Origin: Raillietiella orientalis
Lineage: Eukaryota
Assembly (NCBI GenBank): GCA_036172245.1
Contig: JAYWIR010000003.1
Coordinates: 6,014,001-6,078,000 of the forward strand
Direction: 5' to 3'
Length of the DNA stretch: 64,000 nt
Shown: positions 9,751 through 62,997 of the stretch, in pieces
Position numbering within the stretch: the stretch's first letter is position 1
How the letters are laid out: every line of letters starts with the position of its first letter
Translations under genes and position numbers: made by a program
Notes under the pieces: generated by a model
What the model was told of the DNA's origin: nothing
The model's database searches: none
The model's input: only the letters and a program-made list of their open reading frames with translations

Positions 9751-10099
9751 GTTGTTTGTTACCAGTTAAGAGCTGGTTTTAATAAATTCATCCTTCCGCT
9801 TGTTGGATTTGGGGAAAAGAGTGAAACTCCACCACGAGTGAGACTCGAGCTCTTGAGCCACCCCGGGAAGGTGCGTCCAGGATGAAGTCGCTGGAAACAC
9901 TCTGTGAGAACCACGGACGAGTGGTGACTCCTCCCCGTGCACTGGGTCTAGTGTGACCGTACTTGGCTGCTCACGGATCCGACCCGAAATTGTTGAAACG
10001 CTTGTGTGGCCTCGTAGGCAAATCAGGAGTAACCATTGACTCTAACTGGAAGGAAAAGCAGGCACCGGTGAGGATTCACTAATTCAAAAGCCGGAGCAA

Positions 10100-10800
10100 G
10101 GAGCTATGGGAAGCACTGGCTCTGGAGGTTCCTTGCTTCCTTGCCATTCCACGGAAGACGCGGCAATGGATGCACCCATGGTCCAGATTCGAGACTGCAA
10201 ACAGTTCCATACGCCGCTGCTCCAATACGCCAAAAAGGGCAAAGGAGGAATCGCCCACAGGACACGAGAAATGTCGCAAAATCAGGACGACGACGCTCGA
10301 TCCGGAACCACAAGGGGAGATGGTTCGGGAATACATTCCACAGACGAACAGAAATGAAGGCACCCCCATCACAGTTTCCAACCGCTCCTGGATACGAGAG
10401 GCTGGAACAGTTTGGAGGACGATCTCCTTGTGATTTTACCACAGATCCCCTCTTCGAGTGGCTCGAGGATTGAATACTGGGTAGGCAGCATCCAAGACGA
10501 GTCCTGCACGGCGTGCGGGCACAGGGAAATCCATCTCCACGTGCCGACCTGCCCGACACTGTGCCAAGACCGGAAAGAGATCAGCAGACCTGAGACCCCT
10601 GGAGAGAATGTTCGAAGGGACCGGCGGCGTTCCCTGATACAGTCCCGTGGTGAGGACCACGATTGGTCACGAGCTCTGTGACAAGAAGAACCAAAGTCCC
10701 ACATCGGCATCAAAATTTCTGATAGGACTAACGCGAAAGGAAACCGGGATCAGGAAATGAGGCGGGGGGGGAGTTCCCTCCTGGAAGCATCATTGCTTCC
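10100..10800 (+). mobile_element. Decayed Utopia-like RT N-terminal fragment (domains 0-2)
   Basis: FPTAPGYERL (cf. NTAPGPDGL, ORF 10141-10473) followed by a degenerate VL...GNPS segment (cf. TVLIHKKGDP). Confidence 0.5.
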
Positions 10801-10939
10801 TACGGAAGGAAGATGACATTGCCCAAGCGAGCGAGGCAACCAGCAACTCCTAAGCGTGGACCCCAAAGGACAGAAAACCCTCACTGAACTGGGGGAAACC
10901 TTGGGGAGTGGAACCCCACGCTAGCAATGCAAAGCATTA

Positions 10940-12300
10940 GGTGGAAATCTCGTTCGGACTTGTCTTTCCCTGACGGTAAGGTCGAAGAAGCTGGAGTGAA
11001 CGACCCTTCAGGGATGGATGACTCGCAGGCATTGCTGTCTGCTGCCTGGGAAACCCTCCTCTTGCTACGCTCTCCGAAAGAGCCGACCAGGTAAAACAGC
11101 AACTGCAGCACACTGGACAGAATGGGGTAGGCTCAACCGGGGTTGTGGGTAGAGCTGCGGGGAGGGTGAAGGAGAACGAATGGGTGCTAAACATCAGCTG
11201 TGCGTGGACCGGAAGAGGAAGGGTACTTTTTTTAGTTTTTTGGAGCGAGCCGAGGAGAAAGTGCCTTCTCCCTTCCCTTCCCACTCTTCCCAAGCATTCC
11301 CCTAAAGGGAGGATGTACGCCAAGACTTGTGGTCCAAAATCAGTGTCGGGAAAGAGTATTCCGCCTGAATGACCTTGATTGCTCTGTCCGCTAGATTCTC
11401 GCAGAGTGGCAACGACCTCGTTCGGAATCCCTTCCCCTCCCATCTCAGCCATGTACGTCTCAGCCCCTCAGTGGACGTTCCCCATTCCGTTGCCCTTCTT
11501 GCGGAAGCGTGGCAGCCGATCTCGGCGGGATATCTTCCAAACGGACGGTCCAGAAGCCATAGACCCCCATTTCGGTTCTTCGTTTGGGAAGGTTCTTCTT
11601 CCACCTGGAGGTCCTGTTGCCTGATAAAATGGACGCGGGATCAACACTGAGAACCGGAGCAGGAGTGAGGATGCCGTGTCGGTAGGTAGGGGTAGCCACT
11701 TCCACATTCCAGACCAGCCGACGTCCCCTGAGAGAGGGCGACCATCGCCTGATCGGCATTCGAGACATCGTGCTCTTGGCTCCCAGCTGGGTAGTCGCCA
11801 CCCAACTGTCAGGGACGTGCGCACCCTCCAGCGGCAGAGCCGTAAGGAACGTCGCGCAAGGCGGAAAACGGACAGCGAGGCGTCTACGAAAGGTCCCAGC
11901 AGTGGAAGTGGCTTAAGTCTGCCGACGTCCAGTCTGCACCTACAGGCTGTCTTCCACCCGGACACTTCTCCCCGTGTCGCGGGCGCACCGCTGCGGTCTC
12001 ATGGAGCTGCCCGTGACCCCGGTCAAGCAGCGGTCAGTTCACTCCGCGCGTTCGTACCTCCAACTAACCGAAGGTGATCCGATCCTGTTCCAGGTTCTCG
12101 ACAGAGCTGCCTCGGGACGCCTCTCTCAAAGAGAAGAGGGAGAAGAGTTGCCTCGAGTGAGAAGGGTAAAGACCTTCCTCTCCCCTTCTGCACATCTAGT
12201 CTTTCGGACTGCTTCGCTTCACATCCGACAGACAGCCCGTGTAGCAAACTGCTGTTTCGGAAGAGCACGGGAGATGAATCTCCCCTCGCATTTGCGTGGA
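10940..12300 (-). mobile_element. Decayed Utopia-like RT domain 4 to thumb fragment
   Basis: A frameshifted RGN/LLPLLF (cf. QG.PLSPLLFN) at ~12125-12155, ADWT...LKP (cf. ADW.GL.F.P), AIKVIQAEYSFPTL (cf. LDAI.TF..P.L) and TKKSTLPLPVHA (cf. K..L.LP.RA). Confidence 0.55.
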
Positions 12301-12321
12301 AGTCCTCCCGTTAAGAAGGGT

Positions 12322-12473
12322 AATGGGCCGAGCCCGGAGGAACTGCAATACCGGGTCAACCCGCAACAGGGGAGAAGAAAGCTCCAAGCATCCTCTCCAC
12401 TTCCCAAAAGGTAGCTTAATGTGCTGGCCACCAGATGGGTGGCGTATCAGATGTCAAGCTGATAAGAACAGAT
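12322..12473 (-). pseudogene. U2: 5'-truncated U2 snRNA gene (approx. nt 38 to the 3' end), interrupted by a Utopia insertion
   Basis: The minus strand reads ATCTGTTCTTATCAGCTTGACATCTGATACGCCACCCATCTGGTGGCC...CTTTTGG...GGGTTGACCCGGTATTGCAGTTCCTCCGGGCTCGGCCCA. This covers U2 stem IIa (TATCAG/CTGATA), stem IIb, a degraded Sm site, stem III and stem-loop IV with the TATTGCAG loop. The 5' part (stem I and the GTAGTA branch-point recognition sequence) is missing. Confidence 0.93.
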
Positions 12474-14900
12474 TTGTTTCAGTAAGGTATTACAAAATAT
12501 ATATAAACAAATAAAGACGGGATGGCTCTGCCGTATCTCTCTTTCTTGGGCTGAGATGATGATCAAATTTCATGACTTAAAGAGAGACTCTTCCCTTCTG
12601 CTACTGCCCCTCGCTGCAGATTGCAGGCGTCATCTGGAGGATGTCCTAGACGGTGCGTCCAGTAGATGTCCAGTGAGGCCACCATTGAGTGCTTCATTTT
12701 ATCCGCATACAACTTCAGGATGACTTCACCGTTTCGAGGGTCCCACGATCCTAAGGCACCTACATTGAACTCACAGACTTGGGTCTGAAGACCTTTTCTC
12801 GTAAACAGCAAGGCAATGTCGTGGTACAGTGGTGCCTCGGTACTCGTGGGTAATTCGTCCCGGACTTCGTGACGAGTGCCGAAGCCGACGAATACCAAAC
12901 GAATTTTTTTCAGGACCCACGATTAACGCTTAAGAAATATGCACAGGAAACACACAAATAAGGAGCATTCTATGGAAGTGTTCGGCACTGTTCGCGAGCT
13001 ACCATGAAACGAAAGTGTTCACTCGTTTCATCATGGGAGTGGGGTGTCGAGTTCCGAGCATGCGCCGAGCGTCGAAGCATTTCCTTGTCGTCGAAATGCG
13101 ACGAGTACTGAGTTTGACGAGTACCGAAGCATCACTGTACATTTTTTCTATTTCCGATCCTGTGAGGCTGAATACCCTGTCCTTGTTTTCGAAAGGATAG
13201 GATACAGTCTTGTTGGACGGCACCAACCTTCATGCTTCTGCCTGTTCTCAAGGACCGCGGCACTCGCAGCTGGAAGAGGGTGGACAGCTGTTCGAGGAAG
13301 CGAGAGAAAGGTGGAAGAATCCCTCTCGGAAAAGCTGCGGTTATCCTCAGAGCCTCTCGTCCGGCGGTTGCCTTCGTGCAGGACAGAGGGGAAAAACCTG
13401 TTGCGCGTGCCTCGACCACCGTGTGAGCAAGCGGGAGCAGCCACACGGCTGCTCTTAACTCTTCCCGTTGTTCCGCTCTTGAAGGGCCGCTTCCAGAACA
13501 GGATCCTGGAATCAAACGGCTTTGTGTACGTCTCTCACGGAATGGCATACAACATGCATTGGGTATTCATGTCACGCATTCACCATGGGAACGCGCCGAC
13601 TGATTCTGCTTCCCATTCTGAAACCGCTTTGGAGCTGCCTGAAGTGCTGATGCGGTTCGAGATCCGGGATGCTATGCGAGGTAGAGACACCACCACTGAC
13701 CTGGGAAGCCGTGAGCGGTGGTCTCGTGAAAGTAGAGGACACGGGAGCTGAGATGTGTGCCATGGAAACTTTCTGTCGCAGAGTGGCGGAGTCAGAAACA
13801 CTCATGAGCACTAGTAGAAATGTTCCTAACCTTTGAAAGAGATGTGGATCGCGCGTGGTTCGAGTAACCAGACTGGGAATAATGCAGAAGCAGAAGAATT
13901 CCGTGAATGCTTGAGGTTTGCGGAAGACTTTTGAGGATCGTGAGATTGCCCCAGAGGTTGGGACCAAAACACGGTTCTTCTCGTTAGCTAATTTCGTTAC
14001 CTAAACTGGAAACGAGTCCGGTAAAGCCGCAGCGGTTGGTCATCTTTGGAGACAAAGATTGATCGGACTCGTTTTATTCACCAGACTCACTGCAACCGAA
14101 TTTCCGGAATAGGATGCTGCTGTCGATCCTACTTCCATCTTTCGTTGGCTCCTGTAAAATTGGGTGTTGGAAGCTGAGAGGTTCTGAATCCCAAGAATCT
14201 CCCCAATACCGAATCTGCAAACGGTAGCTGGCCTCATCTCGAGGCTACCATGAATAACGATTCACGGCACTCAACACAGCCCAAACCAATAAGTAAGCAG
14301 CATGCTGAGAACTCTACAGTAGCACTGAAAAAAAAAAAGGAAAAAAAAGAAGTCTCGAAGTGAGACAGCAGGATTGGGAACTTTTGCAAAACTCGGATTA
14401 TCTTCGGCATCCCACCGGAGCAGTTTGTTTGGCAGCTGATCCCAAACTTATGACAACGGTGCCATGTGCGATTTCTACGGCATTCCAAGCGGGGAAGTGA
14501 GATTGTCTCTGCTTTCCGGTGCTTCCTCCGAACAAGGGCAGAGAATTATGAGCCTCGGGACGTTCATCAAAGCTTACTGACCTTGAACTCATGATAGGTT
14601 GCTCTCGCCACAATGCCAAAGATGAAAGAAAGCATGACAAAGGAGATCAAAACAGGGGAAGCATTTTTCGTGCTCACTTTGCCATGTCCTGAGGATTTGG
14701 ATGGAATGCCTTGCATATTGGATTCCATTTGACGTAGATACGTTTTGTACACGAGCCCTCAAAAGAAGAAAACCACTTGTGCATTTTATTAATAATTTCC
14801 GAAGAGCACCTGGGGCTATAAAGTGTTGTCTTTGTTTTTGTTTAGTGAGACGCAGTTTCATTAATCCACCTTTTTCCGAGATCTCCCATTCCTTTCAATA
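12474..14900 (-). mobile_element. Utopia (U2-targeting RLE non-LTR retrotransposon), decayed RT-thumb-CCHC-RLE with 3' UTR abutting U2
   Basis: D(+1)VSYPFEN...EKMY (ORF 12999-13226) and YHDIA...VCEFNVGALGSWDPRN...SLDIYWTH (ORF 12563-12898) are characteristic RLE C-terminal motifs. VHKA (cf. IHRARLN) lies at ~13525. The 3' UTR ends in AAA and joins TCTGTTCTTATCAG. Confidence 0.88.
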
Positions 14901-15499
14901 TGAACTGGTATCCCAGCTTTCGAAAGGATGCGGAAACGCAAGCCAGGATCCAGCGACTGTAAAATCGGTCGTCTCCTTTTCATGCTTTGAAATAAGCATA
15001 TTAAGTGAAAACACACCAAAGGAAAGCTATCTTTCCGTAGGAAAAATAATGAAAAATTGCACTTTTTATTACTTGATCATGGTTTCAGAGTTTGAAATAA
15101 CTTTTTTGTTGTAAAGAATGAAATAAATAGCTGCATCAAAATGAGCTGCATCAAATGACTCCTATAGAGTACAAATGAAAATTTAATTTCTGAGGTCGAC
15201 TGCCAGGAGTAGTACGATTGCTCGGTCAAAATGAGCCTAACGCCTCTCAGACTCGCTCTTCCAAAAAGCTCCCAGAAAAAAAAAGAAAACAAATACAGCT
15301 TCGAACCTGGTTCTCATGGAACTGTTCCTCTTAAAAGCCACGATGAAATCCTTATTGTTTTTACATATCTTGAGCAATTTGCAAGAGAACTTTTACATTT
15401 TATTTGAATAATTTTTCGGAGTTTCTCACTTCCCCGATACACGGGCATTTCTGTATGAAGCGTCATAAGCTCCATTTCGGGACTGTTTGCTTCCTAGAT

Positions 15500-16450
15500 T
15501 AAAGTTTACTTGAGATTAAGTTCCGAGACTTTTACTGTCATCCTAGATTTGCCTTTCTCTGTTTCTGTTTGCAGCATTTTGTTAAAGGTATCTGTTAACG
15601 ATTATCCCCTCACTAAGCACGACTTTGGCATGTGTGGGTCCTCAGCAGAAAAGAATTTTTTATTCCCAGGATTAAAATGAGAAGCAAATATCCCCCTGTT
15701 GATGAGTGATAATGTTGTTCAATCTGCTTGTCATGTAGTCAACCTCTTCGGCTTCTCCTCCGCAATTTTTGTGCGTAATGTAATTTTCACGCTCGCCTTG
15801 TTAAGGATTCTTATTCACAATAAAATTCCAGTAAGTTCAAGCAATCTGGAATTAAAATATGTTCATGTGTTTTTCGAAAGAGGATTTCGCTTCAAATGAA
15901 TTCTAAAAATTAGCAAGCCTTCTTTCTGTTTTCCATGTTTTCCTCGGAATTGTAGTACGTAAGACGTAAGCTTGTGCCATCGGTCGAAGATGTTCTTCAT
16001 AAATAATTTTCGGCTGCTGAATAACTGTTACCACTTTTGCTGCTAGGCCAATTGGCGTGCGCACTTGAACGCATCCTGGAAATGCTGATTGAATTTCCTT
16101 TCCATGGATCAAAAGTGGAGTTAGCCTAAATTCACGCGAATGGTGGAATCTCAGCAGATGTCGAAAAATACCACTGCATCATCCAGTCGCCCAACGGTAC
16201 TTTTCCGACGTTTCGGTTTCATTCCCTTGCCACCAGTGAATCCACAGGGCTAGTTCACATCTTCCGCACGGTTCCATAAAAATATCCGTGAGTTTAATGG
16301 GGCAGGAGAGGCTTTGCCACCTCCATCGCGACTTGGCAACCTTTAGCTGCCGCAGTCGCGTTGCGAAACGTTTCGCAACCGTCCGCAGGAATTCGAGCCA
16401 GACAATGCAACAACGCTCCCGGGTCGGAGCCGCTTGCACCATCTACCCGG
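15500..16450 (-). mobile_element. Decayed Utopia-like RT fragment (domains 3-7, internally deleted)
   Basis: RERCCIVWLEF (cf. R.C.VAWLDL) and QSLSCPIKLTDIFMEP (cf. QGCPLSP.LFNL.MEP) in ORF 16179-16442. IHGKEI...RTPIG...EEHLRPMAQAYVLRTTIPR (cf. IQG..I...GVPIG...S.LAPWQK.DA.RTF..PR) in ORF 15903-16112. Confidence 0.75.
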
Positions 16451-17747
16451 AAACCCGGAAAACGAAACGGTAGGCGCGGTTTGGGTGTTGAGGATGACCG
16501 GGGGCTGCTGAGCTGAAACGTATATAGCATTCGTGTTTCATTATATGCACATGCAAACAGCTGGTGATTCCAAAGTTCACAATGGAAGTTCAAAAAGTGG
16601 TATGTAAATATGTATGTTGTGATTCTCGTTGCCGAGGTGAACCTTTCTTGTAACCGTGAACTGACATCCGTGCACGGTGATGCCACGAATAAGCATAAGT
16701 AATTAGAGAAGAATGTGTTTTCGAGCCTTCAGTAAAAACGATAGAAAATTTTTGCATTTTCGTTTTTCCCTCGAAAGCACAAAAATCGAGACAAGAATGT
16801 TTGGCCAATTTGCTAATTGGGGTGGAATGTTTGGAATTACCATATTTTAGTTCGGTATGCATCCACGTAAATGAAATCTGCATATCTTTCAATCAATAGG
16901 TCAGTAGATTAACGATCACTAACACTTTTTTCAAGTGTTAGTAATGGTTAATTGAGTGGTTTGGACCGAAAAGGCAGAGATTGTTTAACATGAGCTTTTT
17001 GGTAGCAAAATTGGTTATTTCAAGTTTCTGGAAAGACCGTAAGATACACGTCAAGTAACATTTGGTTATGGAAACATATAATCATATGTTGCTCCGAATC
17101 GGATTATTTTAGCTAAAGTTTGTAATCATCAATTCCGATAGAGTGCCTGGAATATTGGAATACGGTTCTCCTTTAGCAGTGGGATGTTGAATTTCCATTA
17201 TGAAAGCATGGGTTAGACTGCAGAAAAATTATCCTGTATTCAGGTTTCATTGTTCGTACTATGCATGTTAGTTGTTCATCTTAGTAGCTTAGCTTAGCAC
17301 TACATGCAAGAGAATGTTGATCTACTCTAATTCAAAATTGCAAATCAGACAGAAAAATATGTCTCTAGTTTTGAACTAGAGACATAACATGATTTAGAAT
17401 ACTAGTTTAAATGATGCAGTGTGTCCAAATTTAAGAAAAAGTACAAATGCACGGTTAGTTTACTTTCATTTGGAAATTCAATGGTATAGGGGTGTGTAGT
17501 CTTTTGTGTTCATTTCATGATATTGTAGATAGATCTAAAGCTTATATGCAGTCATGCTACAGAAAAAGATTATTTGGGTATATAGTAATGTGCATAATAG
17601 GATACTATAGAATATTTTTGTAACTATCCTGTTTTTAAAGTTCCGGAAAGTATAATAAAAACCTTAATGGATTGAGGAAACATGAAACATAATATTATGT
17701 ATATTAAATGAAGTAAGACTTTAGATGCTGAATTTATATACTTTTAG

Positions 17748-20700
17748 CCACTTAGCTCCCATGTGGCCATTGGAGTTGGACAAGGCGAAAAGAGAACAAA
17801 TACCAGTATGAATTTGAAAGAACATTTTATTGTCTATCCAATTGAGAGCAGGTAATTGCCTGAAATCAACACAAATGTCATTCTTATCCAGATTGCAGAA
17901 AAATTTGTCTGTGGATTCTTCAGATCAGATAGAACAGAACCATGTTACATGGAGACGTTACAGTGATTTTGAATTATTGAAATCATTTTTGGAAGTTTGC
18001 TATCCCCAATGCCTTATACCACCACTTCCTGAGAAAAGAACTACATATGCTTGGAGGAAACTAGCTACAGATGTTCTGGATCCTAGTTTTGTGGAGCATC
18101 GCAGGAAGGGTTTGGAGGTGAGCATTCATGGTTTTTGTTGTTGTTTTTCGTTTTAATTTTTCGTTTCAAGAGTGATAGCTCCAACATGCATGTATTTATT
18201 TTTAATAGGTGTATTTTTCGTTTCTGCATTCTCAGTTAGTTGCCAGATTTAACATAAGGAAATATACAGAAATATCAGCTTTATAAAGTACATTTTTATG
18301 GCTACCTGTAGTCATGTGCTACTTTATTGATATCAAATTTTCATATTTTGACTTTCCCCAAGATTGCATGTCAACCTTTTGTTTGTAAAAACATTGTTTT
18401 AAATGATATTCTTATTGATATTGTTGTATTTATTTTAATCAATGCTGTGATTCAAATGTTAAGAGACATTTAAAGCAATAGTCGAGAATTTAGGAAATAT
18501 TGGAAAAAACTGATTGGTATGTGTTTGTATTATTCCTAACCTAAAGCAGTTAAGCATTGTTGGAATCTTTCTTGGGAATCTACTTGGTATACATTTTTGT
18601 GGTGCGAAATTCGGTGTGCTGTTTTGTACAATGTTGTCAGTAATTTGTGTATATACTTAGTGGAAATAAACATGCCTTTTATGTTTTTCAAACCAGTTGT
18701 TGTTGACTATTCAGTTAATTGAAAGAGCCTTGAGCCACAAGGCTTTCAAACTGGCTATTCAGCATGAACATTTTCATTTTATTTGGTACCAGTGAATTTT
18801 GTCTTATTGTCAGATGCAGATATTTATCTGTAATTTAGTATTCTGCATTCAAGCACGTTTACCCCCCCCACATTTCCTCCCCACACACATGCACACGCAC
18901 ACACCCACGTATACACACACAGATCTGAGTTAAGCATTTTGTAATCTTCCATTGTGGTATCCAAATTATCGTTAGCTTAACAAAATTGAGAATTGATAGG
19001 CTTCATTATGTTCGGTATTTGTATAGTATTACAAGTTCTTCATTTGGGCATTTAGGTTGTTTTATGCTATACTTGTGGATTATTGTATGCATTATGAAAC
19101 TGTATGGAGTTCTCTATCATTCCAGTAGGACAGGAAGTAGGGCTTCTTTAGCAATAATAGGTGGAGGTACTGTTATGATGAAGTGTATTGTGCTGAGGTT
19201 GTAACTATATCCGTTAAAAATTTGAAAAAGAACATTGAAACTTAGTGCAATGTTTTAAACATTGTGCTAAGTTTTAATTACATAGCAAGTAAATATTTTT
19301 ATTTGTTCTTATTTACTCTAAGCAGATGGCAAAATAAAGCTCAGCTTTTTTCCTGGTTTCACAGACTTTATTATTGTTGCCATGAATGGCATTTCGAATT
19401 CGTGGCCAAATTCTTTCGAGTGCTATTATCTTTAAGAAAAGAAAAAATAAAAACATGAGATGGGAATTGTTCACATCCATGGAATTTTAATTTTGATAGA
19501 CTTGGTTACTTTTATGAGGAAAACTTTACAAAGTAAAGGTCAAAACAGCACTCACAAAAGATGAAAAATTGAAAATTAACGTTAATTATGGCCACTGAAA
19601 AAACAGAATATGAAAGAAAATGAACAAAAGTGATTTCTAAATGAGGTAAAAATTTTCAGTATGTGTCACAGGATTATGATGTTCCATTGGTATATATTTA
19701 TTAGAATCTAGAAGCATAATGTTTGTAATATTGAATGAGTAAGAAAAATACACAAAGAAGAAGCAACAGTAATTATTTAACATTCTAATGAAAAAAATCT
19801 TCTGGGTTTGTAGGAGAAAAAAAAAATCTTGACTTAGGTTATATGCAAATCATAGACAATAAATTAAATGATGATTCGGTGTAGGGAGAAAATAGTTTTA
19901 CTTCAGCAGTTTCAGGACTGCAGTAAGTTATTTGCAATTAATAATGTGCAATTTCATTTTCTACGAAATGAAGTTCGTATAAATTTTTGAACTAGCATTA
20001 GATTTTTCTCCTGTATTGAAATAAGCATGCACAAACATGTAAGAGTACAATTGCAGCTCTGTACCAAAATGAGGTTGAAATTTAGAAAATCTGAAATAGC
20101 TTATGAACAGCTTTGTAGGAAATATATAACAAATAATAAAACGTGCATATTTAGCGAGTTTGGAAACGTTCGGACTCAACACTTTGTGTAGCATACCTTG
20201 GTGCATCATTTGAAAATTATAGAAATAATTGTGTTTCCTGAAATTGCGCAATTTACTCATTTTTGATGTGATGACAGGTTTATAGTTATACTTGCTTTAA
20301 AATCCCAGTGTGTGATCAGATAGTAACACTTCATAAATCTTTGTCTTTAAAGGACTAAAGAAAAAGAATGCAAATTATAGGCAACTACAGCTTTCTGGTA
20401 GCTGTGTAATTTTATCTCATCTGTCAATGAAATGCTGAATTCATTATGCATTATACTATGCCAGGTATTCCTGCATCGTGTTGCCAGCCATCCTTTGTTG
20501 TCAAATGAACGTTTGTTTTTGAGCTTCTTGAAAACAGAAGAGGATTGGAATAAGCAAGTGCACCAGTCAGGTCAGGTGCGAAATGATGGGTCTTAAAGAA
20601 CAGCTGCTGATTGTGGGTTGACAGAATGCTGGAATGCTAGCAACTCTGTGTTAGAACTATTGGTGGCAGCCATTTCATTGCATGAACCAGATATTCAACT

Positions 20701-21425
20701 TCAACAAGTATATGATTATAGTCAAGGGCTGCACTGTCATCTGTCAGCATTACTGCGAACACGGTCAAAAATGGCTGATTATCTTTATTCACAATCAGAA
20801 TTGCAGCGAGCATGTGGAGCCATTATGGTTCAGTGGAGCCATTTTGAAGACGGTGCCCTGGAAGACAGCTTACAGGTAATCATGTTGTTGAGTTTGTTGT
20901 TATATATTACATATTTAGAGTTGTGGTCACTTGTTGGAGGTATGCAGTAGTTGGGTAGAGGCTCTGTTGGAAGAGGAAGAGCACTGCATTGATAAATTTA
21001 AAGAATATTTATTTTATACGGATTCCTTAAACAACTTATGCAAGCGTCAGGCTTTTGTGGAACAATCAGTTCAGCATGTAATAAATGATATGCAGCACAA
21101 GAAAACTGAAATAGAAAAATCTAATGAAACACAAAGATCCTTCTCTTTGATAACTCGGATGTTGAGTGGAGGAGATGAGTATCCTAGAAGCCGCCTACAT
21201 CAACTCCAGCTCCAAGTGCAGAAGGAGGAATGCCAAGCAGCACTCCTAGAAAAGAAAAGGCAATGTTTTCTGAAACAAAGTCTTTATGATGTCGAGGTCT
21301 TCCACAAACAAAAGGAGCAGGATCTACGGCAGACACTGCGCCAGTATGCCCTTTGTCAAATCAATCTATGTAGACGTAATATCACCCTATGGGCACAATT
21401 TCGAAGTTGTTTAGATTCTAAATAA
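17748..21425 (+). CDS. SNX4: Sorting nexin-4 (PX + BAR); first exon/start codon not identified
   Basis: Exons 17748-17851, 17892-18117, 20465-20570, 20625-20875 and 20919-21425, all GT-AG and in frame. PX motifs WRRYSDFELL, PPLPEKR and DPSFVEHRRKGLE|VFLHRVASHPLL. BAR region with KFKEYLFYTDSL and QKEQDLRQTLRQYALCQI, typical of SNX4. Confidence 0.93.
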
Positions 21426-21444: not shown

Positions 21445-22218
21445 TTAAACAGTTGGGTGAAGACTGAGTTTTTGCAACACAGTAAGCACCAAATTATGTA
21501 TATTTTGTGGCTTGCAATGTTCTTCCAACCATGTAAAGGTGCATGCAGATAATTCCGAGAATGAGGATACACGTACGCATGCATTGAAGGACTGATACAG
21601 AGAATCCAAAAGCAAGTGAAGGATCTGCATTTTTATCTCATCAGGAAGTTGACTTTCATGCTGATCTGGCATATTCTCATGAGTTTTCAGTATCTGCTCG
21701 TAGTTGGTTTTCATAATTTGCAATCCCGCCACTTCTTTACGAAGAGATCCTAGTTCTTCCTCTTGTTTTTTTTTTTGCTGAAGTAAATACTTTGGGGAGA
21801 TGCATCCGATACGAAATACCTATCTTACATTGATATAATCTATGGAACGCTGCAAGATAGTAGCTTTACTTAATTTACAAGGGCTAATGTTATCGAGGCC
21901 TTGTTGACACGTAGGGACAATGTACTGTAAGCTGGCATAACCTCGTTTTATAGCATCCCTCCGTTTTTGTTCAGCTTGTGTGTGTGCCTCTCTGCGACGA
22001 TCCTTGTAGCTACGAGATAACGATCGATGATCGCTATCATCATCATCAGAACAGGTGCCCACCAGGAAATCTCCAGAAACTCAAAACATATGATACCATT
22101 CACAGGACTTACCATGTGGCAAACTTCGATTGCATGAAAGTTGAGAACCATAATTTCCGATTAAGTTTTCTGTTTCAAAATTCTTTTCTTTTAATGATAC
22201 ATTTTCATCGAATTCCAT
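21445..22218 (-). CDS. MLX: Max-like protein X (bHLH-ZIP, Mlx/bigmax/MXL-2)
   Basis: Exons 22218-22113, ~22070-21829 and 21789-21445. Basic region SYKDRRREAHTQAEQKRRDAIKRGY, helix 2 KLSKATILQRSIDYI, zipper, and DCD-like SFSELSACTFTWLEEHCKPQ. Confidence 0.93.
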
Positions 22219-25899: not shown

Positions 25900-28800
25900 T
25901 TCGTTCATATTGCGTGTGTTCTTCTGGACCATCATTCACTTAGAGGCCGAGCTAATGGCAAAAGGACATTGGAGACTTCAGAAGCTTCCCTGAATTTTTC
26001 AAACATCGATAAAACGTAGGTGACAACTGTACATTCCAAACTTGTATCCAAAGCACAGAAGGGGAAATGAAAAGTACGAAACGAGGAGAAGGAATTGGTG
26101 TTGTCGGTCTTTGAACCACCGGATGAAAATTTCGTAGGAATCAAACGGTGGTGCCCACGTGCCCTGTCACGCAGTGGTTCATCTGGAAACTGCAGCTGTT
26201 GTTCTGTTGACCGCATTAAAGTATGGACTCCTGCGGCACGAATAGGTCATTTCTGTTATTGATTCACGGAGCACCAAGAAAGACCCTGATGGTTGCATTC
26301 GCAACTCGACAGATTTATTGCTTTCACCGTGCTTGTTCTCTGGCGGTTTGGGAGCACTTTCGATTGCAGAACTGTTGACCGCAAACCTTTTTCTGCAGCT
26401 CGTTTTGTGCGTTTTAAGCGGTGTGTAAGTAAAACGAATGCACGGATTGAACCGAGTTTTATGGCCCTCTGCTATAACAGCCGCACGAGCTGTGCAAGAG
26501 AAAATTTCTGCTTGATGGTTGAGGCAACTCAATAAAGGGAAAGCTCTGGTGTAACATGCGTTGTACCTCGCACTTTCGTGAATGCTTTGATTTGCACACA
26601 CAGTGTATTTGAATACGCCTTGTCCTTACATGACCGCGTAACTGATGTCCGCAGTGGGAATGCGTTTGGATCGTAAAGTGGACCTGCGATGATCGGCAAT
26701 CGGCCATCAGTAAGCAACAGGAAATATAGTGCCTGTGCGTTGTCCAGTAATCTGAAGAAAAAGTCTACCTGCGACCTGTTGGCTAAGCAGATTATTCGCA
26801 GCGCCCGCTGACAGAGGAATAGGTGCACCTGAGGTCTACGTGAGGTCATCCCTCCTTGGGAAGAAGTAGCACTCGATCCACGCACAAAACGCTGATCATA
26901 GTGAAACAGTAAGTAAAAGTAAAGCAAGCGCAACCCAGAAGAGAACGTTGCGAGGTAGCGAGCGAACATCTCGTAAGGAGAGAACGAGGAGCAAAGAAAC
27001 GAGTGACTTCCTTGTGGTTCTTGACGGGGTCCTCTCATTCGTTGCTTTCCTCCCTCGCCAACCACCGCTGCCAACTGCAGGCAAGTTTCACACCAGCAAA
27101 AGGCGATCGGCACCGGTCCTTCGGCCTCCTCTACAGCCATTTACAATGCACAAAAGCAGCTTGTGATCTTTTCCACTTGCTCTGATTCGCAAAAAGTGGC
27201 CAAGGAAGCGGTGAGGATGCACTTTTCCCATGCAGCGAATTTTTCTTGGGTCCAGTTCCCTTCCTCGCCCGCCCGGAGGATTTCGGTCACCTTCCTGTCC
27301 CCCTTCTTTCTTTCTTGTTTATCAGGTAATCGCACCAACTTGGGAGTGAGGTCTCGCGCCACAGCGGCGGCGTTCTGGTGCGGCCCCGCTCGGCCAGCCA
27401 CGAGCCAGGGCTTCCATGCAACAAAACACGCGCCGAGGGAACACTCCCCTTGTCGATAGAAGGGGAATCTGTGGTTCCCGGAGTTCACCGTCCAACACCG
27501 GGAAGCCAGCTTGGCTTCCCGCCCCCACCCGTCAGCGAAAGGGAAGGTCTCGACAGGAAACGTGCTGCGCCTGGCTTCTTAGCGGGTCGCCTAAGGCCGA
27601 GAAAACTGTCCAAGGGAAAGGTCCGTTTCGGTTGAAGTCCTTCCGGAAGAGCCAGACGGCAGGCGGGTCCCGTCGCAGCCTGCGCGCAGGCAGCAGCGTC
27701 GGGTCTCCCACGAGAGACCAGTAGGGGGCGCGGTCGGCTGGCGGAACGTGCTGACTCTCTGCGAGAAGCGCGGAACTTGGTGCTTCCCTGCACCGGGAGT
27801 CCGCTCGCGCTCCCGGGTCCTTACCGGAGAAGACGACGGAGCAACCCCCTCTCCCCCCTGCAAGGATTCCGTTTCAGGACCGACCCGGGCGTGCTCCCGT
27901 GAGTTCCGGCCGCACTCCAGGGCGCGGAGGACTGCCGGAGACCGACGAGCGACGAGGCTCCTCCCCTCACACCCATCGACAGAGCAGCTGCCTCCGGGCA
28001 CGCACGTCGTCGCCTGAGCCTAGCATCCCTGCGCGCTCAGCCGCGCCCGCATCCACCCCTGGTGGCAGGATGGAAGCCACTCGAACGGTGACATCGAGGT
28101 GCTGAATGTGAGGGGACCTCAGCGTCCGGAGGCACAGGGGATGCCGACAAGCTGTCCCGAGTGACCTGAGGGCACCCGAAGATCCGAGTGGGTCAGAATC
28201 GAGCGACTGAAGCGACACCACGCGGCTAGGCGCCTCTTTCCGCTCCTCGTCTTGGAAAAAAGTCGCTCCGAAGGAAGGAGGGGGGGGGGGGGTCGCTGAC
28301 CGGTCTCCAGCAGACGCCGATGCTTGAGATCCAGAGGCTCCGAGCTTTCCTCTCCCCCCCCCCTTCCTTGGTCCGCTCTAGGAGGAAGGTTTCCTACTGC
28401 GCCCCCGCCTCCTTTGAGTGCTGGCGCTTCTGCGGCTGACCAACGGGGCAGCGACGCACGCGCTCGCGCCCGCGGCAGTGGCTTGGAGGAGGACCGTCTG
28501 CCGACCCCTGCGAGGCAACAGCGCCGCTGCCTCGGGCCTCTCCGGACCATCCGGGCTGGATGCTACTCCAGCCGCCGGAGACGCACCTCCCAGAGGGCAA
28601 CTGGTCCCGCTGGAAGGAGCGCCCGCACAGAGCATTCTGGATAGCGGGAGACGGCTGCGGCCCGCGGAGCTGCTGCCCTACAGAGCAAGAGTCGCTCGTT
28701 TTTCCCTCCCGGTGACCCGTCCGGAGCCGCCGCCTCCGCGAGTCTGGGTGGCCACCGGGCAGACCTTCGAAAGACGGGAGCGCAGCGCAGTCGTGCACCA

Positions 28801-29140
28801 AAAGTCCCTCAGGTTCCTTCCCGCCACCGGTCCGCGGTTCCGACGCAACCGTTCCGATATCCACTCCAGAGGCTTCTTCCACGCGTGCGCACCGCTGCCA
28901 GGAATGCCGTCGGCGGCATCCGCGGTCTAACGGGGGGAGGCTCGCGCGCACGCGCGGTCACTCGTGGAAACGAGCCAAGGCGCGCAGGCAGCGACATCTT
29001 GCCGCTTGGTGGAGCAGCACCGGAGGAAGCAGGAGATTTCCGAGGAGCAGCCGTCTGCATGATTCCGGCTGACGCCGCTGCCCAGACTTTGTTCGCGCGG
29101 TTCCTCGGCTGCGCGAACGCCCACGCCCTCGCTCGGTAGC
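25900..29140 (-). mobile_element. Long decayed Utopia-like copy with GC-rich N-terminal region and RT
   Basis: ACYTRAFPLLS...AEGHKTRFNP (cf. AYADDL.L.A...GLRFNP, ORF 26179-26601) and an RT3-4-like segment in ORF 26529-27140. The GC-rich 27.5-29.1 kb part contains Cys/His remnants (RNHADGC...FLRCC; CGRSF). The N-terminal assignment is tentative. Confidence 0.55.
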
Positions 29141-29459
29141 TAACGCGCTTGGGAAATTTGCGCGGCTCCTCTCCGAGGGAGGGGGATCTCGATGCTTCCA
29201 GGCCGCTCGGGCCGCTCCTCCCCCTCCTCCTTTTTTTTTTTTTTTTTTTGTCTTTTCCTCGCTAGAGAGTTTCTTTTTTCAGTTTCGCTCTTTGGCGCGG
29301 CCGCTTGGCGCCACGCCTCGGGAGGCATAACAAAAACAGACCTGTTCTTTCGTGCTCTGCAAAGCAGGGGGAGACCACCTGTTCCTTTACGCCATCTTTT
29401 TTTTTTTTTTTTCCTCTTCGCCCATCGGGGGAAAGGGAAAAAAAAAAAAAAAAAAAAGG

Positions 29460-30390
29460 TCTTTCAGAGCGTGCGTTGCAGATCGCGTTTCCCCTCCATC
29501 TGCGTTTTATCCCTGAACTTTCGCGAAAGTGGAAGGCTCTTCTGGATTCGAAGGACGCCGTGCCGAGCATCCCCTCTTCTACCTGTGAGTGCTGCCCCCA
29601 AGAACTCCCGAGGTTTCTTTCCACCCCACGAAGAGAGCTGCGCACACGCTGCTCTCCTCGTGGGTCAAAAAGTCTCCAGCCGTTTCCCCCCCGCCCGCGC
29701 GAAGGAGAGAGATGGAACAGCGCGCGGGTGCGATGGCATCTGTGCCGCTGGAGCACGAACCTCCGACCAGGTGAAGTGCGTGCGGCTTCGAGCGGCACGT
29801 GAGCGCGACCTGGAAACGCAGCAGCGGCGCTTCGGAAACGCCCGAAGGATTTCTCGTCTCCACGAGACCGTGGCGACCAAATTTCAGAGTATCCCTCGCG
29901 CCCGTCTTTCTCTGATATGCATTTCCTGTGCGTCTCGTGCGCTCAGTTCAGTGGGGAGAAGCATGGGAGGGAGGGGGGCGATGAAAGGGGAGGGGGGGGG
30001 GAAGGGAAACAGCACTAATGGTCATTCCTCTCGCTAATGAAGTTGTACGCATCACGGCTGCACTTCCGTTCGCGAGTCCCACTTCTCGCTTGGACTTTGG
30101 AGAAGGAAGCCCGACTTTTTCCAGATCCCAGGGGTTTCGCAGTCCGATCTCGATCAGCTCGTGCTCTGTGCAGAAACGCAGGAAGGGCTCCATTCTATTG
30201 AAGGCCTTCCCAGAGGGAACATCTTCATTAAATTTGCGTAGTGCAATAGAAACCACGGTTGCCAGCAGGCTTCGAGTAATTCGCGAAGCGAGAGCATCCC
30301 CTCTGGGAAACCATTCCAACGTAACGGAGGGGTACGCAGGAATGTGCCAGATCAATCAAAAGCTTTTATTCGTTGGTCGTAATTAGTGTT
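29460..30390 (-). mobile_element. Decayed Utopia-like RT fragment (domains 2-4)
   Basis: LLATVVSIALRKF...PFLRFCTEHELI (cf. LA.RL..W...GF...GC.EH.F.L, ORF 29948-30355) and SGVSEAPLLRF (cf. GV.QG.PLSPLLF, ORF 29579-29863). Confidence 0.6.
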
Positions 30391-39021: not shown

Positions 39022-42000
39022 TCAATAAAAAATACTTCCGGGGGTCTCTCGGGATGCCTGCATGGACCCCGCGTGAGAGCTCAGTAATAATTGTCCAGGA
39101 GTAGCAATCTGCAGTAGCAGTCCTGTATTGGAGGCGGGCAGCGCGGCCACGGGGCTCAGCAGAGCAGTACCCATTACCGACATGGATGGTAGCAGAATGG
39201 GCACATTCTGTATGAAATTTACGGGTTGAAGCAAAGTTGTTGCCGTGGGAGCAAACATCATGGGGCTCGACGTGTGCGTTCCTGCTTGTAATAACGAAGC
39301 CACGGATTGGCTGGGAGCTTTCCGCTTTTTCGGTCTTTTGCTCCTCATGGCACTGCAGGAACGGGAGGCCGTTCCCGACTCAGACAGAGGGGTGCCGGGA
39401 ACTATCTGCAAGCTCAACGTCTGTGGCATAACTACGGGATTAACGATTTGCACTACAGGCTGACTGAGTACTTGTACCGCGGGAACGAGAGCCGACGATG
39501 TATCTTTAGAAGGGGACAGTAACGTGATGTGATGCTGGAGCAGCGCGGTTTGCTGTGCCAGATATTCGCTGGGATTATCCAGGAACGATGGACCGGACTG
39601 GATCTTATGCGATGGTTCCACGGTGCCGAGGGACTCTGGCACCCTCTGCATGTCTTTGGGACCGAAAGTGGAACTCGGAACCACATCCGAGCGCGACGTC
39701 GTCTCCACCGTCGCTGCCATCCCATTGTGACCGACGACTTCTTTGCGCCTCTTGATGGCTGCAACGTTTTCTGAAAGCACACGGAAAGTTATGCACATGG
39801 ATGGGATTCCAGGTGCGATGCATATTGGCATCCGATCCCAATCACGCAACAGATGTTTGATACCACAATAAAATCATGCGGAATGGCTTGCTGGAGCTTC
39901 GTGCGGGGATGCACAACGGAAAAAAAAAAAAAAATTGCAAGCTGGCAACACTGCACTCACCTATTCCATCATTCGCCACATGTCGGCACGAACGAGCTGC
40001 AGTGCTCAACAGGCCCGATGTGCTCTGACAAAAGGAAAACAGAGGTCAGGCAGCTGAAAGAGCTGTTTTCCACTTACTTCAGGATTAAAGTTGAAAAGTT
40101 TGTCAACTTGAAAGGGGCACGGCAGACCACACTTGCAGGTGCCATTACTGGACAGGTAGGCACACACGTCTTGAACAGAATGCAAATATGCGTTGCTGGG
40201 ACTGAGGGAGGAAACAGAAAATAAGGGAACCACAGTGGAACAAGGGATATCAAAAAAAAAAAAAAAAAAATTCCAAATGCTGCGTGGAAACATTTTCGGA
40301 AAATGGAATTCGAAAGTCCGAAGAGCAAACGGAATCTTTTTCATCTTTAAATGATGAGAGTGACTGCTCGTGAGACATGCAGAAAGCAAAAAAAGCCGTA
40401 CAGATCGTACGTCTGCCATTATGCTATGTACATGTGGAAGAACCGGGCGCCTGTTACAAACCAAACTGAGTAGGAAATGAAAAAAATCTCGGAATCTTGG
40501 TCAAAAAAAAAAAAAAAACCCACGAACGTGTAAACATATGTACACGCGGGGGCAACACACACACACACACACACACACACACCTTCATGTGAACAATTTC
40601 ATATTATTGACTGAATGAACATTTATGCTGTTCATCCCTTATGCGTGGGCAAAAATGATTGCTGACGGTCTCCGAGCTAAAAGGCATTAACCTTAGTTGA
40701 TATGTTCATCCAAGGCGCTACGGTGAAATTCCCCTTCGAAAAAGGAAGAAAAAAAAAAAAAAAACTGCTGCAGGGTGTAAAAAAAAAAAAAAAAAAAAAA
40801 GAAAATTCGAAAATATCTTCTCGTGAGGCTACTGTCCAATCGCTAGGAAACACATAATTGAAGGTGAACGCGATTACATATTTAGAATAAGTCTACCGTG
40901 ACTACCCGACGTCTTTGGAGCGCCTGAGGGAAACGCTTGCTGCAGTCTCCACAGAGTAGCGATTACACAAGGAAGAGCGCCAAAAGTTTGAATACTTAAC
41001 GATTTCCGGCACGACGAAATGATGGTGCAGAGCCTCGGATGGAAGGCAGAGATCTATGGCATGCAATTCGTAAATGCATGCAGTGAGGTGTTATTGATAT
41101 GCAACAAGAAAGTAAATAAAGAAAATCGCGAATTTCACGCGGGATAAAACATGTTGCTCTATTCATCGTCGCAACCTTTTGCTACTTTTTTTATAATTCG
41201 ATACTTTTGTCAGCATCTGGTCATCCTGGATGCAAACATTGTGTGTGTGTGTGTGTGTGTGTACAGTTTTCAAGACAAAATTTACAGGCATTCTTGTTTC
41301 AAGTATGGGAACATTCAAAGCTTTTATCGGCGGACGAGTGTTTTCATTATTTTTTACATTTTAAAAGTAACCGAGTACCGAGTACTTTTGGTTTATTACT
41401 TTGTTTCCGATGCAGCTCAAACATCCCATACTTACCTTACATAAACCACAGCACCCTCACATATGAGTCGTGTCCATCCTAAAGGCACACTTGTGTGATA
41501 CACTGATTCTTGCGTTTTCGATTTGCCATGAGAATCATACTTTGATGATGAATCACCTGGTTTACTAGCAGGCATTTGATCTCTTGAATGATGGAAATAT
41601 GAAACATGACGAGTAGTAACACAAGATGTGTTATGAAAAGGTCTACTTTGGTCAGTCATAGATCGGTACAACAAGGATTCTTCACGATGCAGCTGATAAC
41701 AGGGATCACTAAAGGATGCATCAAAAGGTGCTTCACAAGGATACCAATGATTCCGGGGAGCTACCTGCTCATTATGACTGTCAGCACTCAAGCTACTACA
41801 ACTGGATTCAGAACGTACACTTTCACAAGAAGTTGCAATGCTACCAGGGATATCATCAACCTTATCTACTACATCACTAGTCACTTGCTTTGGTATAACC
41901 ATATCTGTATTGTCACTCTGAACATGCAAGCTAGGATATGGCCTTACATGGCATTCTTCCTGATAAGGAGATAAATTACCAAGAGAGGGGTTACACTGCA

Positions 42001-53746: not shown

Positions 53747-56658
<2,912 letters not shown>

Positions 56659-60504: not shown

Positions 60505-62997
60505 TCATGTATCATCAGTCTGCTCTAAAACAGCTCCACTGTAAGCTAAATCCCAATAGTGTTCCACTGTATGCTTCTTAAGATGTTCACGTGCCATAGC
60601 TTCTGTTGGACACACTTTGTAGCGTACTTCGGCAAAATTGCGATGCTTGGCACGACCCTGGAAAACTTTGGCATGAGCAACCTGATTCTGCCATCTTTCA
60701 CTTACCTCCCATACCAAAGTGCACCCTTCTTCTTCTGTCCATTTAATGCGATTCATTAACAACCGGCGGTATTTTTTCTGCTGTTTAGGGCCACCCTCAA
60801 CCACTACTACATTAACATCTTTGTACAATACAATTGTTCCTGTCATTTGCAATTGCTGAGCATTTTTTTCTACTTTGAATTTTTTTGACAAATTTGATAA
60901 GTCTCGAATTCGGTACACACAAACATGTACTCCAGAGCTAGTATCTTCCCGCAATTTCCGTATTTTCTTATCACGCCTTTGCTGGGTGGATAGCTTTCTT
61001 GCTGTGTTGGTCTCTTCATGTGCTTTCTGTCGGCGGGCCATTTGCTCTTTCACGTGAGTTTCCATTTTAGTAGGGTCCTGCACAGCCTGTGTACCAATAG
61101 CTCGCATCAGATTTGACAAGCGCAATTTCGGCTCAGGAGGTTGTTCCAAGCCAAGTCGGATCTTCTCTTGTTTCTCCTTCCATGCTTCACGACGATTCAT
61201 TCTACGTAGCTTTCTCTGTTCCTTTTTTGTTAAAAAGGCTGAGATCTGGGGCATTTTATAGCTTGCTACAAATATGCATGTTGTAACTACAATTATTAAA
61301 AGCTTTACTTACTAAAACATTTTATTTGTGCTGGGTGCTCTACCAAATTGGTGACTCCTTGAATCTGCAACTCATTACCCAGTCTGTTCCTTATCAACAT
61401 GAGTAAATATATTTTTTCTATCCACTACCTGCTGTTTCGCATAATGACAGAGTCCCACCACTCAACATCTGGTGTATAGTCATCACTCAGTAGTTTGGTC
61501 TTGGGAGCAATTAATGCCAGTTTGGTCTCACAACTGATTCCTGTTTTCTTCGCTATTTCAGCAATTTCATTTTGTAGCTTGTCCAGTTGTGCCTTTAACA
61601 TGCACATACAAGAAAAAGAACATAAAAAAAATAAAAAAAGATTCCCAATATTTCAATTTGTCTAGTTTCTGTATTTACCTTAGCCCGAAGACGCTGGGCT
61701 TGTTGAACAAACTTTCCTTGCTCATGAAACTGGAAAGTTCTCTTGGAACGTTGAGATGGGCGAAATCCAACCCTAGGATCAAAGAATTTACTATGACTGC
61801 TTTCCTCAGGAGGTGGCTGTAACAACTGCTGCTTAAACTGTTCTCGTTTAATGGCTCTAATATTGGCCTATCAAAAAGGATTAGTATAAAACACAGCACA
61901 CAGAACTCTACCTTCAAAGTGGGCATACGTTGTGTAAGCTGAATTTCCTTTCCACTGCTGTCCACAGTACGCCCTTCTTTGTCCAAAATAAGAGGGGTAG
62001 GTTTGTTTGGTAAAGCAGGAAGAGAGAGTCCAGATTTAGTTAACTTGGACTGGATCTGTGCCTGAAAGTATATATATTATTGCCATACAGATACATATTT
62101 TAAAATAACATTACTAAGAACATATGCATCTTTACTTCAGTATACTCAGTAACAGATATAATGCCTTGATCTAAATCTCAGGACACTTTTGCAAACATGT
62201 CTGCCATGTAACGTTTGGACATACCCCCAAAATTTAGAAACCTGCCAAACCTGTAGCTGAGCAATCTTCCGAGTTTTCTCCTCTGCCTCCCTTTGCTGCT
62301 GTTGTTGCTGATGCTGATGAGCAAGCGTAAGAGCTACTTGTTCTGGAAGAGTAGGTCCAATCTGAGGCAGTTTTCCGATACCCAGGGCAGTGAGAGCTTT
62401 TTTTCGTTCTTCTATCATCTTCTGAGCCTGAGCCATCATTTGCTTAATCTAAAGAATTGCAAATATCACTTTAAAACTGTGTCAAAACAATTCTTACTTG
62501 GTTTGCTGATAAGTGATCATCAGAAGCATTTGAATCAGGTTTTTTCCTGGAATCTTCCCTATTTCGGCTTCGTTTGTTTTCAATTTCTCCTTTTTCATCA
62601 TAATCCAAGTGTCGTTTCTTTGAACTTGAATGTTTTTTTTGAACATCATTTAAATATTCAAAAACTTTATCTACTAATTTTATAGCTTTATCCTTGTCCA
62701 TGTAAGATGACAATTTTTCTGGAAAAGCATTTACTTTTTAATTTAAAAATCTTAGAAAGATGAAAAAGAAGGTGACTGCTCACAAAGATTAAGTTAAAAA
62801 ATCACATACATTATGTATTAATACTTGAAATGCTTAATAATATACTGACCACCAATACGTTTCTTATCATATCCATCTACAAGATAATTCATTGTAGAAG
62901 ACACCACTTTAGTATCTTTTGAGCCCAAGTAACGATCAACAGCTTTTTCAACATAAGGTTTAAAGGTTTCCATATCATGTTTGGCAAGTAGTGGCAT
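60505..62997 (-). CDS. PRPF3: U4/U6 snRNP protein Prp3
   Basis: Exons 62997-62850, 62718-62498, 62448-62251, 62061-61912, 61867-61679, 61592-61429, ~61389-61313, 61265-60706 and 60657-60505. N-terminal PWI-like region, then [60 protein letters not shown] and EHYWDLA. Confidence 0.96.

Follow-up and report, generated by a model that had tools for sequence, protein, structure and literature searches.

U2-specific retrotransposons

Utopia elements encode an RLE, belong to the NeSL clade and are inserted in U2 genes (Kojima and Jurka, 2015; PMC4640811). According to the passages of that paper that deal with the insertion site, the U2 flank downstream of Utopia starts at nt 39, and the 3' boundary of the insertions is precise whereas the 5' boundary is variable. 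Its S1 Fig prints Utopia 3' ends that are followed by TCTGTTCT... and that carry no poly(A). The same passages describe the loss of the U2 5' fragment that can accompany the integration of Utopia, as well as dispersed U2 genes and pseudogenes that serve as its targets (PMC4640811). A second type of element, Keno, is APE-type, belongs to the Tx1 clade and has no RLE, and the 3' U2 flank that it leaves is identical to that of Utopia (PMC4640811, same passages). Three Repbase entries, Utopia-1_AMi, Utopia-1_Crp and Utopia-1_Gav, are printed in the portion of the supplementary alignments of Mahbub et al. that is used below (Mahbub et al., 2017; PMC5678591). Cataloguing Utopia has since become routine, and a passage of PMC13580325 gives further lineages, for instance from sponges.

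A U2 remnant joined to a retrotransposon stub

The locus described here was found in a stretch of 64 kb of DNA, the whole of which was analysed and is referred to as the window. A preliminary description of this DNA had reported RLE motifs and a short 3' UTR joined directly to U2 sequence, and all of these components are indeed present, on the minus strand and in the place given for them. From the upstream to the downstream end of the element, the features are as follows:

13229-13138, minus strand: RLE coding piece A, (RLVPSNKT)VSYPFENKDRVFSLTGSEIEKMY, with homology supported from 13205 downward and collinear with the profile
13205-13185, minus strand: peptide motif VSYPFEN
12827-13137, no strand assigned: MITE of 311 bp, with 24-nt terminal inverted repeats, CAGTG termini and TA duplications at 12825-12826 and 13138-13139
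12826-12563, minus strand: RLE C-terminal coding piece B, Y-HDIALL...VGALGSWDPRN...DIYWTH...HEI, 87 codons plus stop, recognised by phmmer and by the clade profile
12763-12731, minus strand: peptide motif VGALGSWDPRN
12670-12653, minus strand: peptide motif DIYWTH
12565-12563, minus strand: stop codon of the RLE ORF, read from the sequence
12562-12473, minus strand: 3' UTR of 90 nt, with the AT-rich end GAAACAAA and no poly(A), abutting U2 nt 39 (letters read directly)
12472-12318, minus strand: U2 snRNA remnant (cmscan RF00004, 86.6 bits, E 3.4e-18, model 39-192, 5'-cut flag)

Across the 64 kb, U2 (RF00004) is the sole Rfam family to reach its gathering score, with 86.8 bits (E 9.1e-16) at 12318-12504. 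In this match the 31 nt of AT-rich sequence at 12473-12504 are forced onto the U2 5' end, so that the alignment runs over model positions 1-192. These nucleotides are not U2, since they add only 0.2 bits to the score of 12250-12472 searched alone, which gave 86.6 bits over positions 39-192 and a flag for a 5' cut; a search of 12473-13300 likewise found no U2-like sequence at E<=10. The remnant is 155 nt long, extends from U2 nt 39 to the 3' end and begins with TCTGTTCTTATCAG. The junction lies at 12473/12472, with an ambiguity of 1 nt in that the last A could equally be U2 nt 38, and across it the 3' UTR of the element passes into U2 nt 39 without a spacer, the element and U2 having the same orientation. 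This is also the outcome of the Infernal search with the Rfam U2 model that the preliminary description had proposed as a check.

The U6-pairing and branch-point-recognition sequences of U2 are held within nt 1-38. The remnant lacks this complete 5' end, which is expected of a functional U2 snRNA gene, and because its first 38 nt are missing it is a headless pseudogene. The earlier statement that the U2 5' half is absent from the window is borne out as well, as two overlapping 20-mers (U2 nt ~6-38) gave 0 matches in the window at <=3 mismatches and no second U2 match was found at E<=10 in 10000-17000. Neither a U2 5' part nor another U2 gene nor a recognisable flank of a U2 gene is present in the window, so that a U2 gene may, but need not, have stood at this locus.

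Protein relatives and assignment to Utopia

The last 87 codons of the ORF (12826-12566) were compared by HMMER phmmer with a library of 1.84 billion representative proteins. Ten matches were obtained at E<=1e-3, and two of these are retroelement proteins. The best match, the turtle protein P0001 (E 1.6e-12, 43% identity), contains several tandem RLE C-termini, and the other, P0002 (E 6.1e-7), carries a Pfam RVT_1 match. When both proteins were searched against the window by tblastn, the matches were confined to 12623-12895. The remaining eight of the ten are repeat proteins aligned over 17-32 residues only and were rejected as relatives. No protein more than 43% identical to the RLE of the stub was found among the 1.84 billion representatives, a word-indexed search for closer relatives with the same 87-aa piece returned no longer proteins at E<=0.01, and the nearest proteins of the Utopia clade show 37-43% identity over about 60-70 residues.

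P0001 itself has 167 relatives at E<=0.001, and the hosts noted among the best 120 of these 167 are turtles, ants, bees, wasps, sawflies, spiders, barnacles and a dragonfly. Solenopsis invicta, Camponotus floridanus, Pelodiscus sinensis and Ladona fulva are among the relatives listed, and all four appear in the Utopia hosts given in Table 1 of PMC4640811. P0011, a full-length protein from a turtle, shares 84% identity with P0001 in the RLE region and can be aligned with R2 proteins of solved structure in two separate parts, the RT and the RLE. Compared by eye, its linker string GGANVPRMGDLCDIAV.THAFRLLTCPD and its RT block agree almost letter for letter with those of Utopia-1_AMi, Utopia-1_Crp and Utopia-1_Gav in the supplementary alignments mentioned above (PMC5678591). 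Some of the protein matches bear the name T26G10.4, for which a full-text search found no paper.

Two profiles were built from these proteins, namely a clade profile of 191 positions, from 130 RLE regions of 122 relatives, and a full-length profile of 1209 positions, from 52 full-length relatives. Against the 3015 six-frame ORFs of the window, the clade profile matched piece B (12826-12566) with 32.8 bits and E 8.6e-9 over positions 120-177 of 191, the runner-up having E 2.8. With the full-length profile, the ORF at 12566-12922 that contains piece B matched over positions 1101-1170 of 1209 (E 1.4e-9; next best E 1; 3015 ORFs). Piece A taken alone is a weak match to the clade profile (2.7 bits, E 14), which falls on positions 99-123 and is collinear with piece B. 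Once the two pieces are joined over the MITE, with an X at the break, they form a single alignment over profile positions 99-177 with 41.2 bits and E 2.4e-11 (3015 ORFs). Only about 80 RLE residues of the stub align to the clade profile. A comparison of the stub with the 122 clade proteins matched 120 of them at E<=10, and the best single domains reached about 30-34 bits for hymenopteran proteins and about 25 bits for those of turtles. The RLE homology that had earlier been read from the motifs is beyond chance, as seen from the E values of P0001 in the protein library and of piece B with its distant runner-up in the window.

Among the R2 and L1 chains in the PDB the stub matches none at E<=10, and no Pfam family was found to cover the RLE C-terminal region. 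The only credible database relatives of the stub are those of the clade that contains the Repbase Utopia elements. Utopia proteins are recognised by a PD-(D/E)xK RLE at the C-terminus and the lack of an APE, and what the stub retains is a homologous C-terminal RLE half; the U2 flank from nt 39 in the same orientation, which is the mark of the Utopia site, is found exactly at 12473/12472. Since U2 starts at nt 39 and the RLE is homologous to the Utopia clade, an assignment to Utopia is supported, and the sequence abutting U2 is probably the C-terminal half of a Utopia-type RLE. The preliminary description had made the same identification, a Utopia element at its U2 target, and on these two grounds it holds.

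The stub is a rather divergent lineage of Utopia, a family described in 2015, and the copy is a correct but ordinary one. Three strings of 10-12 nt from the 3' UTR end and the junction are absent from the 3' ends printed in S1 Fig of PMC4640811. A full-text search found no paper on this particular copy, although such a search cannot show that the copy is unpublished.

Extent of the remaining element

The frame is closed by a stop codon just above 13229, the homology begins at about 13205, and neither the RLE-region nor the full-length clade profile finds homology upstream of that stop. With this stop codon and no homology beyond it, the interval of about 13205-13229 marks the 5' truncation point. 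What remains of the element is the last ~115 RLE codons and the 90-nt 3' UTR, or about 430 bp. The truncation has removed the catalytic PD and D positions of the RLE, whose place is farther upstream, and the residues that match the catalytic aspartate of the relatives (...VDVT...) are not conserved in the stub.

A complete Utopia protein has one or more N-terminal zinc fingers, an RT and a CCHC knuckle ahead of the RLE, and its RT groups with Utopia within the NeSL clade; this copy has lost all of these regions. The missing parts of the protein were not found elsewhere. Pfam detected no reverse transcriptase in the 16 minus-strand ORFs of 12563-16892 and no transposon protein families in the other window ORFs scanned, and the 1209-position profile, run over the 3015 ORFs, found no RT, linker, zinc knuckle or N-terminus in the 64 kb. 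Because the MITE splits the RLE and no RT, linker or zinc knuckle is found in the 64 kb, the copy is a severely 5'-truncated dead stub, and the window contains no second copy of the stub, of the MITE or of the U2 part. The preliminary description had spoken of an intact 3' junction, and the word is true of the junction and not of the element, a stub of some 430 bp that is truncated at the 5' end and split by a MITE; its suggestion that 12474-14900 be used for an RT/RLE tree fails in that this stretch holds no RT. It had also listed the three motifs together, and here it has to be corrected in that they do not share one ORF, as the 311-bp insertion at 12827-13137 separates VSYPFEN from VGALGSWDPRN.

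A MITE nested in the RLE remnant

The 311-bp element divides the RLE ORF inside an ...EK-M-Y motif, so that VSYPFEN and VGALGSWDPRN stand in different frames. The upstream frame, ...EIEKM-Y, runs into the MITE and the downstream frame exits as Y-HDIALL. At both edges the tyrosine codon consists of the TA duplication plus C (TAC), the profile places the end of one piece and the start of the other on one and the same tyrosine, and deleting the MITE together with one TA restores the frame at a single tyrosine codon. An intron was considered for the gap between the coding pieces and rejected, given the terminal inverted repeats and the TA duplication. The terminal inverted repeats are complementary at 22 of 24 positions (92%), and no coding capacity is recognised between them. 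The element has the TA duplication, the terminal inverted repeats and the non-autonomous character of Tc1/mariner-type MITEs, and from its TA duplications we take it to be Tc1/mariner-derived (Stowaway-like). It would have landed in an already dead stub.

Surroundings of the stub

The ORF family scan placed the following features in the rest of the window:

17818-18153, plus strand: PX-domain (sorting-nexin-like) exon
21823-22080, minus strand: bHLH exon
54468-54701, minus strand: DnaJ zinc-finger exon
60508-61867, minus strand: PRP3

The stub is isolated among these ordinary genes. No tandem array was found around it and no tRNA genes were found in the window, nor was a target-site duplication found around a possible plus-strand retroposon that ends in an A-rich tract at 14327-14352.

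Some side observations concern the neighbouring genes themselves. The PRP3 exon matches human Prp3 (E 1.1e-94) and has about 60-66% identity to its best relatives, which are from arthropods and lampreys; in a quick tree it has a very long branch (1.39) and no firm place among hexapods. These matches place the window in an animal genome. A MNNL-like ORF is also present in the window.

Proposed history and alternatives

We consider it highly probable that a Utopia-type element integrated into a U2 gene copy and is now a dead, truncated stub with a nested MITE. Judging from what is published for Utopia and R2, a nick made by the RLE in the bottom strand at U2 nt 38/39 would have been followed by target-primed reverse transcription from the 3' UTR end, which would have produced the precise 3' junction at 12473/12472 in the orientation of U2. 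A 5' truncation, during or after integration, would have left about 115 RLE codons and the 3' UTR, and U2 nt 1-38 would have been lost at integration or after it. The TA-duplicating MITE would have inserted into the RLE remnant later, in the order of events that we infer.

The same junction could have been made elsewhere, with a chimera of the Utopia 3' end and U2 nt 39 to the end being copied to this locus, either by read-through 3' transduction or by DNA-level duplication from a U2 array. The isolation of the remnant would fit such an origin, as it is the sole U2 match in 64 kb, has no U2 5' half and stands among ordinary neighbour genes, and so would the fact that the U2 homology stops at about the end of the RNA (model position 192). 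Furthermore, 14 nt at the U2 3' end match the 14-mer of the U2 target at 9 of 14 positions, for which we estimate a chance of about 5% within a span of 20 nt; this weak match, however, came to notice only afterwards. The locus has no poly(A), target-site duplication or second junction to mark a retrocopy, and the dispersed U2 targets and the loss of the U2 5' part, both described for Utopia in the cited passages of PMC4640811, explain the same facts. We therefore regard a copied chimera as unlikely. In one particular form of it the stub would be an orphan: a read-through Utopia-U2 RNA, terminated at the 3' end of U2, would have been copied into DNA at a site outside U2 that weakly resembles the target. 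This form seems to us rather improbable. Were it true, Utopia would scatter units of its tail plus U2 nt 39 to the end throughout the genome, and these could help to explain why, as published, disrupted U2 genes outnumber intact ones.

Integration of a Utopia-type element directly at its target, the reading that we prefer, can also be set against two accounts in which no Utopia took part. A non-specific RLE fragment (R2-like, HERO or R4) may by chance lie beside an unrelated, 5'-truncated U2 pseudogene, and it is true that RLE C-termini are similar across clades and that the aligned part is short, at ~80 residues. Chance would nevertheless have had to cut U2 exactly at position 39 out of 192 possible ones and in the same orientation, and to set the 3' end of the element against it without a spacer; the nearest relatives belong to the Utopia-containing clade, and the R2 chains are unmatched. 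This makes a chance neighbourhood very improbable. Keno, the Tx1-clade AP-endonuclease user of the identical U2 site, would leave behind the same 3' U2 flank, but the section on Keno in PMC4640811 describes it as carrying an APE and lacking an RLE. Here the ORF, which stops 90 nt short of the junction, shows homology to RLE C-termini, and no L1-type protein was matched, nor was an APE or RT family found in the ORFs scanned. Because of the RLE homology in the ORF abutting the junction, Keno is disfavoured to the point of being scarcely credible as the source.

Implications for annotation

The stub represents one more divergent Utopia lineage in an animal genome, once again with the canonical junction at nt 38/39, and supports an ancient origin and a wide distribution of the U2 target specificity. 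It is of use for annotation rather than as a discovery, and no new mechanism is opened by it. Rfam gives the U2 match at 12318-12504 as full-length (model 1-192) when it is really a headless pseudogene, and neither the ORF at 12566-12922 nor that at 12999-13229 is a gene, both being debris of a transposon. The 311-bp MITE provides a marker for relative dating.

Comparison with known systems

The nested element resembles Tc1/mariner MITEs in its TA duplication, in its short terminal inverted repeats starting with CAGTG, in its small size and in the lack of an ORF, and differs from them in that no related autonomous element or second copy is present in the window. R2 (structures 9nl2, 8gh6 and 8ibw) shares the RT-linker-RLE architecture and the target-primed mechanism with the Utopia type. 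Its target is 28S rDNA, in contrast to U2 here, and the stub, which matches no PDB R2 chain, shows neither the 28S rDNA insertion nor the R2-type protein by which R2 is known. Keno and the stub have the identical insertion site and 3' U2 flank in common; Keno has an AP endonuclease without an RLE, whereas the ORF of the stub is RLE-like.

The closest system is Utopia. The stub differs from it in being only about 430 bp long and isolated rather than placed in a U2 array, and in its divergent protein, which has at most 43% identity to any representative. It is like Utopia in joining U2 at nt 39 with the same orientation, in an RLE C-terminus homologous to the clade that holds the reptile Utopia-1_AMi and in the absence of a poly(A) tail, and the passages of PMC4640811 cited above report 5'-truncated copies of Utopia as well as the loss of the 5' part of U2.

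U2 match and the nested element

Rfam gives the U2 match at 12318-12504 (minus strand) as untruncated (model 1-192), although its model positions 1-38 are aligned onto the 3' UTR of the transposon; complete U2 gene is the label that automatic annotation would give to this interval. The nearby RLE remnant, the C-terminal endonuclease piece of a 5'-truncated Utopia-type retrotransposon, itself hosts a nested 311-bp MITE, of which no further copy was found elsewhere in the 64-kb window.

Further features of the window
12827-13137, MITE, 311 bp, terminal inverted repeats of 24 nt, CAGTG at both ends, TA duplicated at the target site
14327-14352, plus, A-rich tract, period 13, 2 copies
16908-16952, inverted repeat, 20 nt, 5-nt loop, 90% complementary
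17818-18153, plus, PX domain exon (E 1.5e-13)
20919-21422, plus, Vps5-like exon (weak match)
21823-22080, minus, bHLH exon (E 3.2e-14)
26000-30000, GC-rich island, up to 63% GC versus 32-47% nearby
39775-40221, plus, Notch-ligand N-terminal match (sub-threshold)
54468-54701, minus, DnaJ CXXCXGXG domain exon (E 1.2e-15)
60508-61308 and 61598-61867, minus, PRP3 (U4/U6 snRNP) gene

A plus-strand retroposon may span approximately 13230-14350, with the A-rich tract as its tail, and this span directly adjoins the 5' truncation point of the Utopia-type stub; neither a target duplication nor protein homology was found for this candidate when sought.

Other genes

The PX, Vps5-like, bHLH, DnaJ and Notch-ligand-like stretches are exons of ordinary genes. 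The GC-rich island contains many long, overlapping ORFs on both strands, none with a Pfam match. The C-terminal 267 codons of PRP3 form a single uninterrupted ORF. Since its identity to the listed homologues is only 60-66% and a quick tree gives it a very long branch, this gene may be a paralogue that evolves fast or arose by retrocopying.

Related database proteins

In the gene models of both best retroelement matches of the remnant, P0001 (turtle) and P0002, the RLE C-terminus occurs in tandem in several copies: four in P0001, and one N-terminal plus two C-terminal in P0002. These models may have been read across tandem Utopia insertions, or they may be assembly artefacts.
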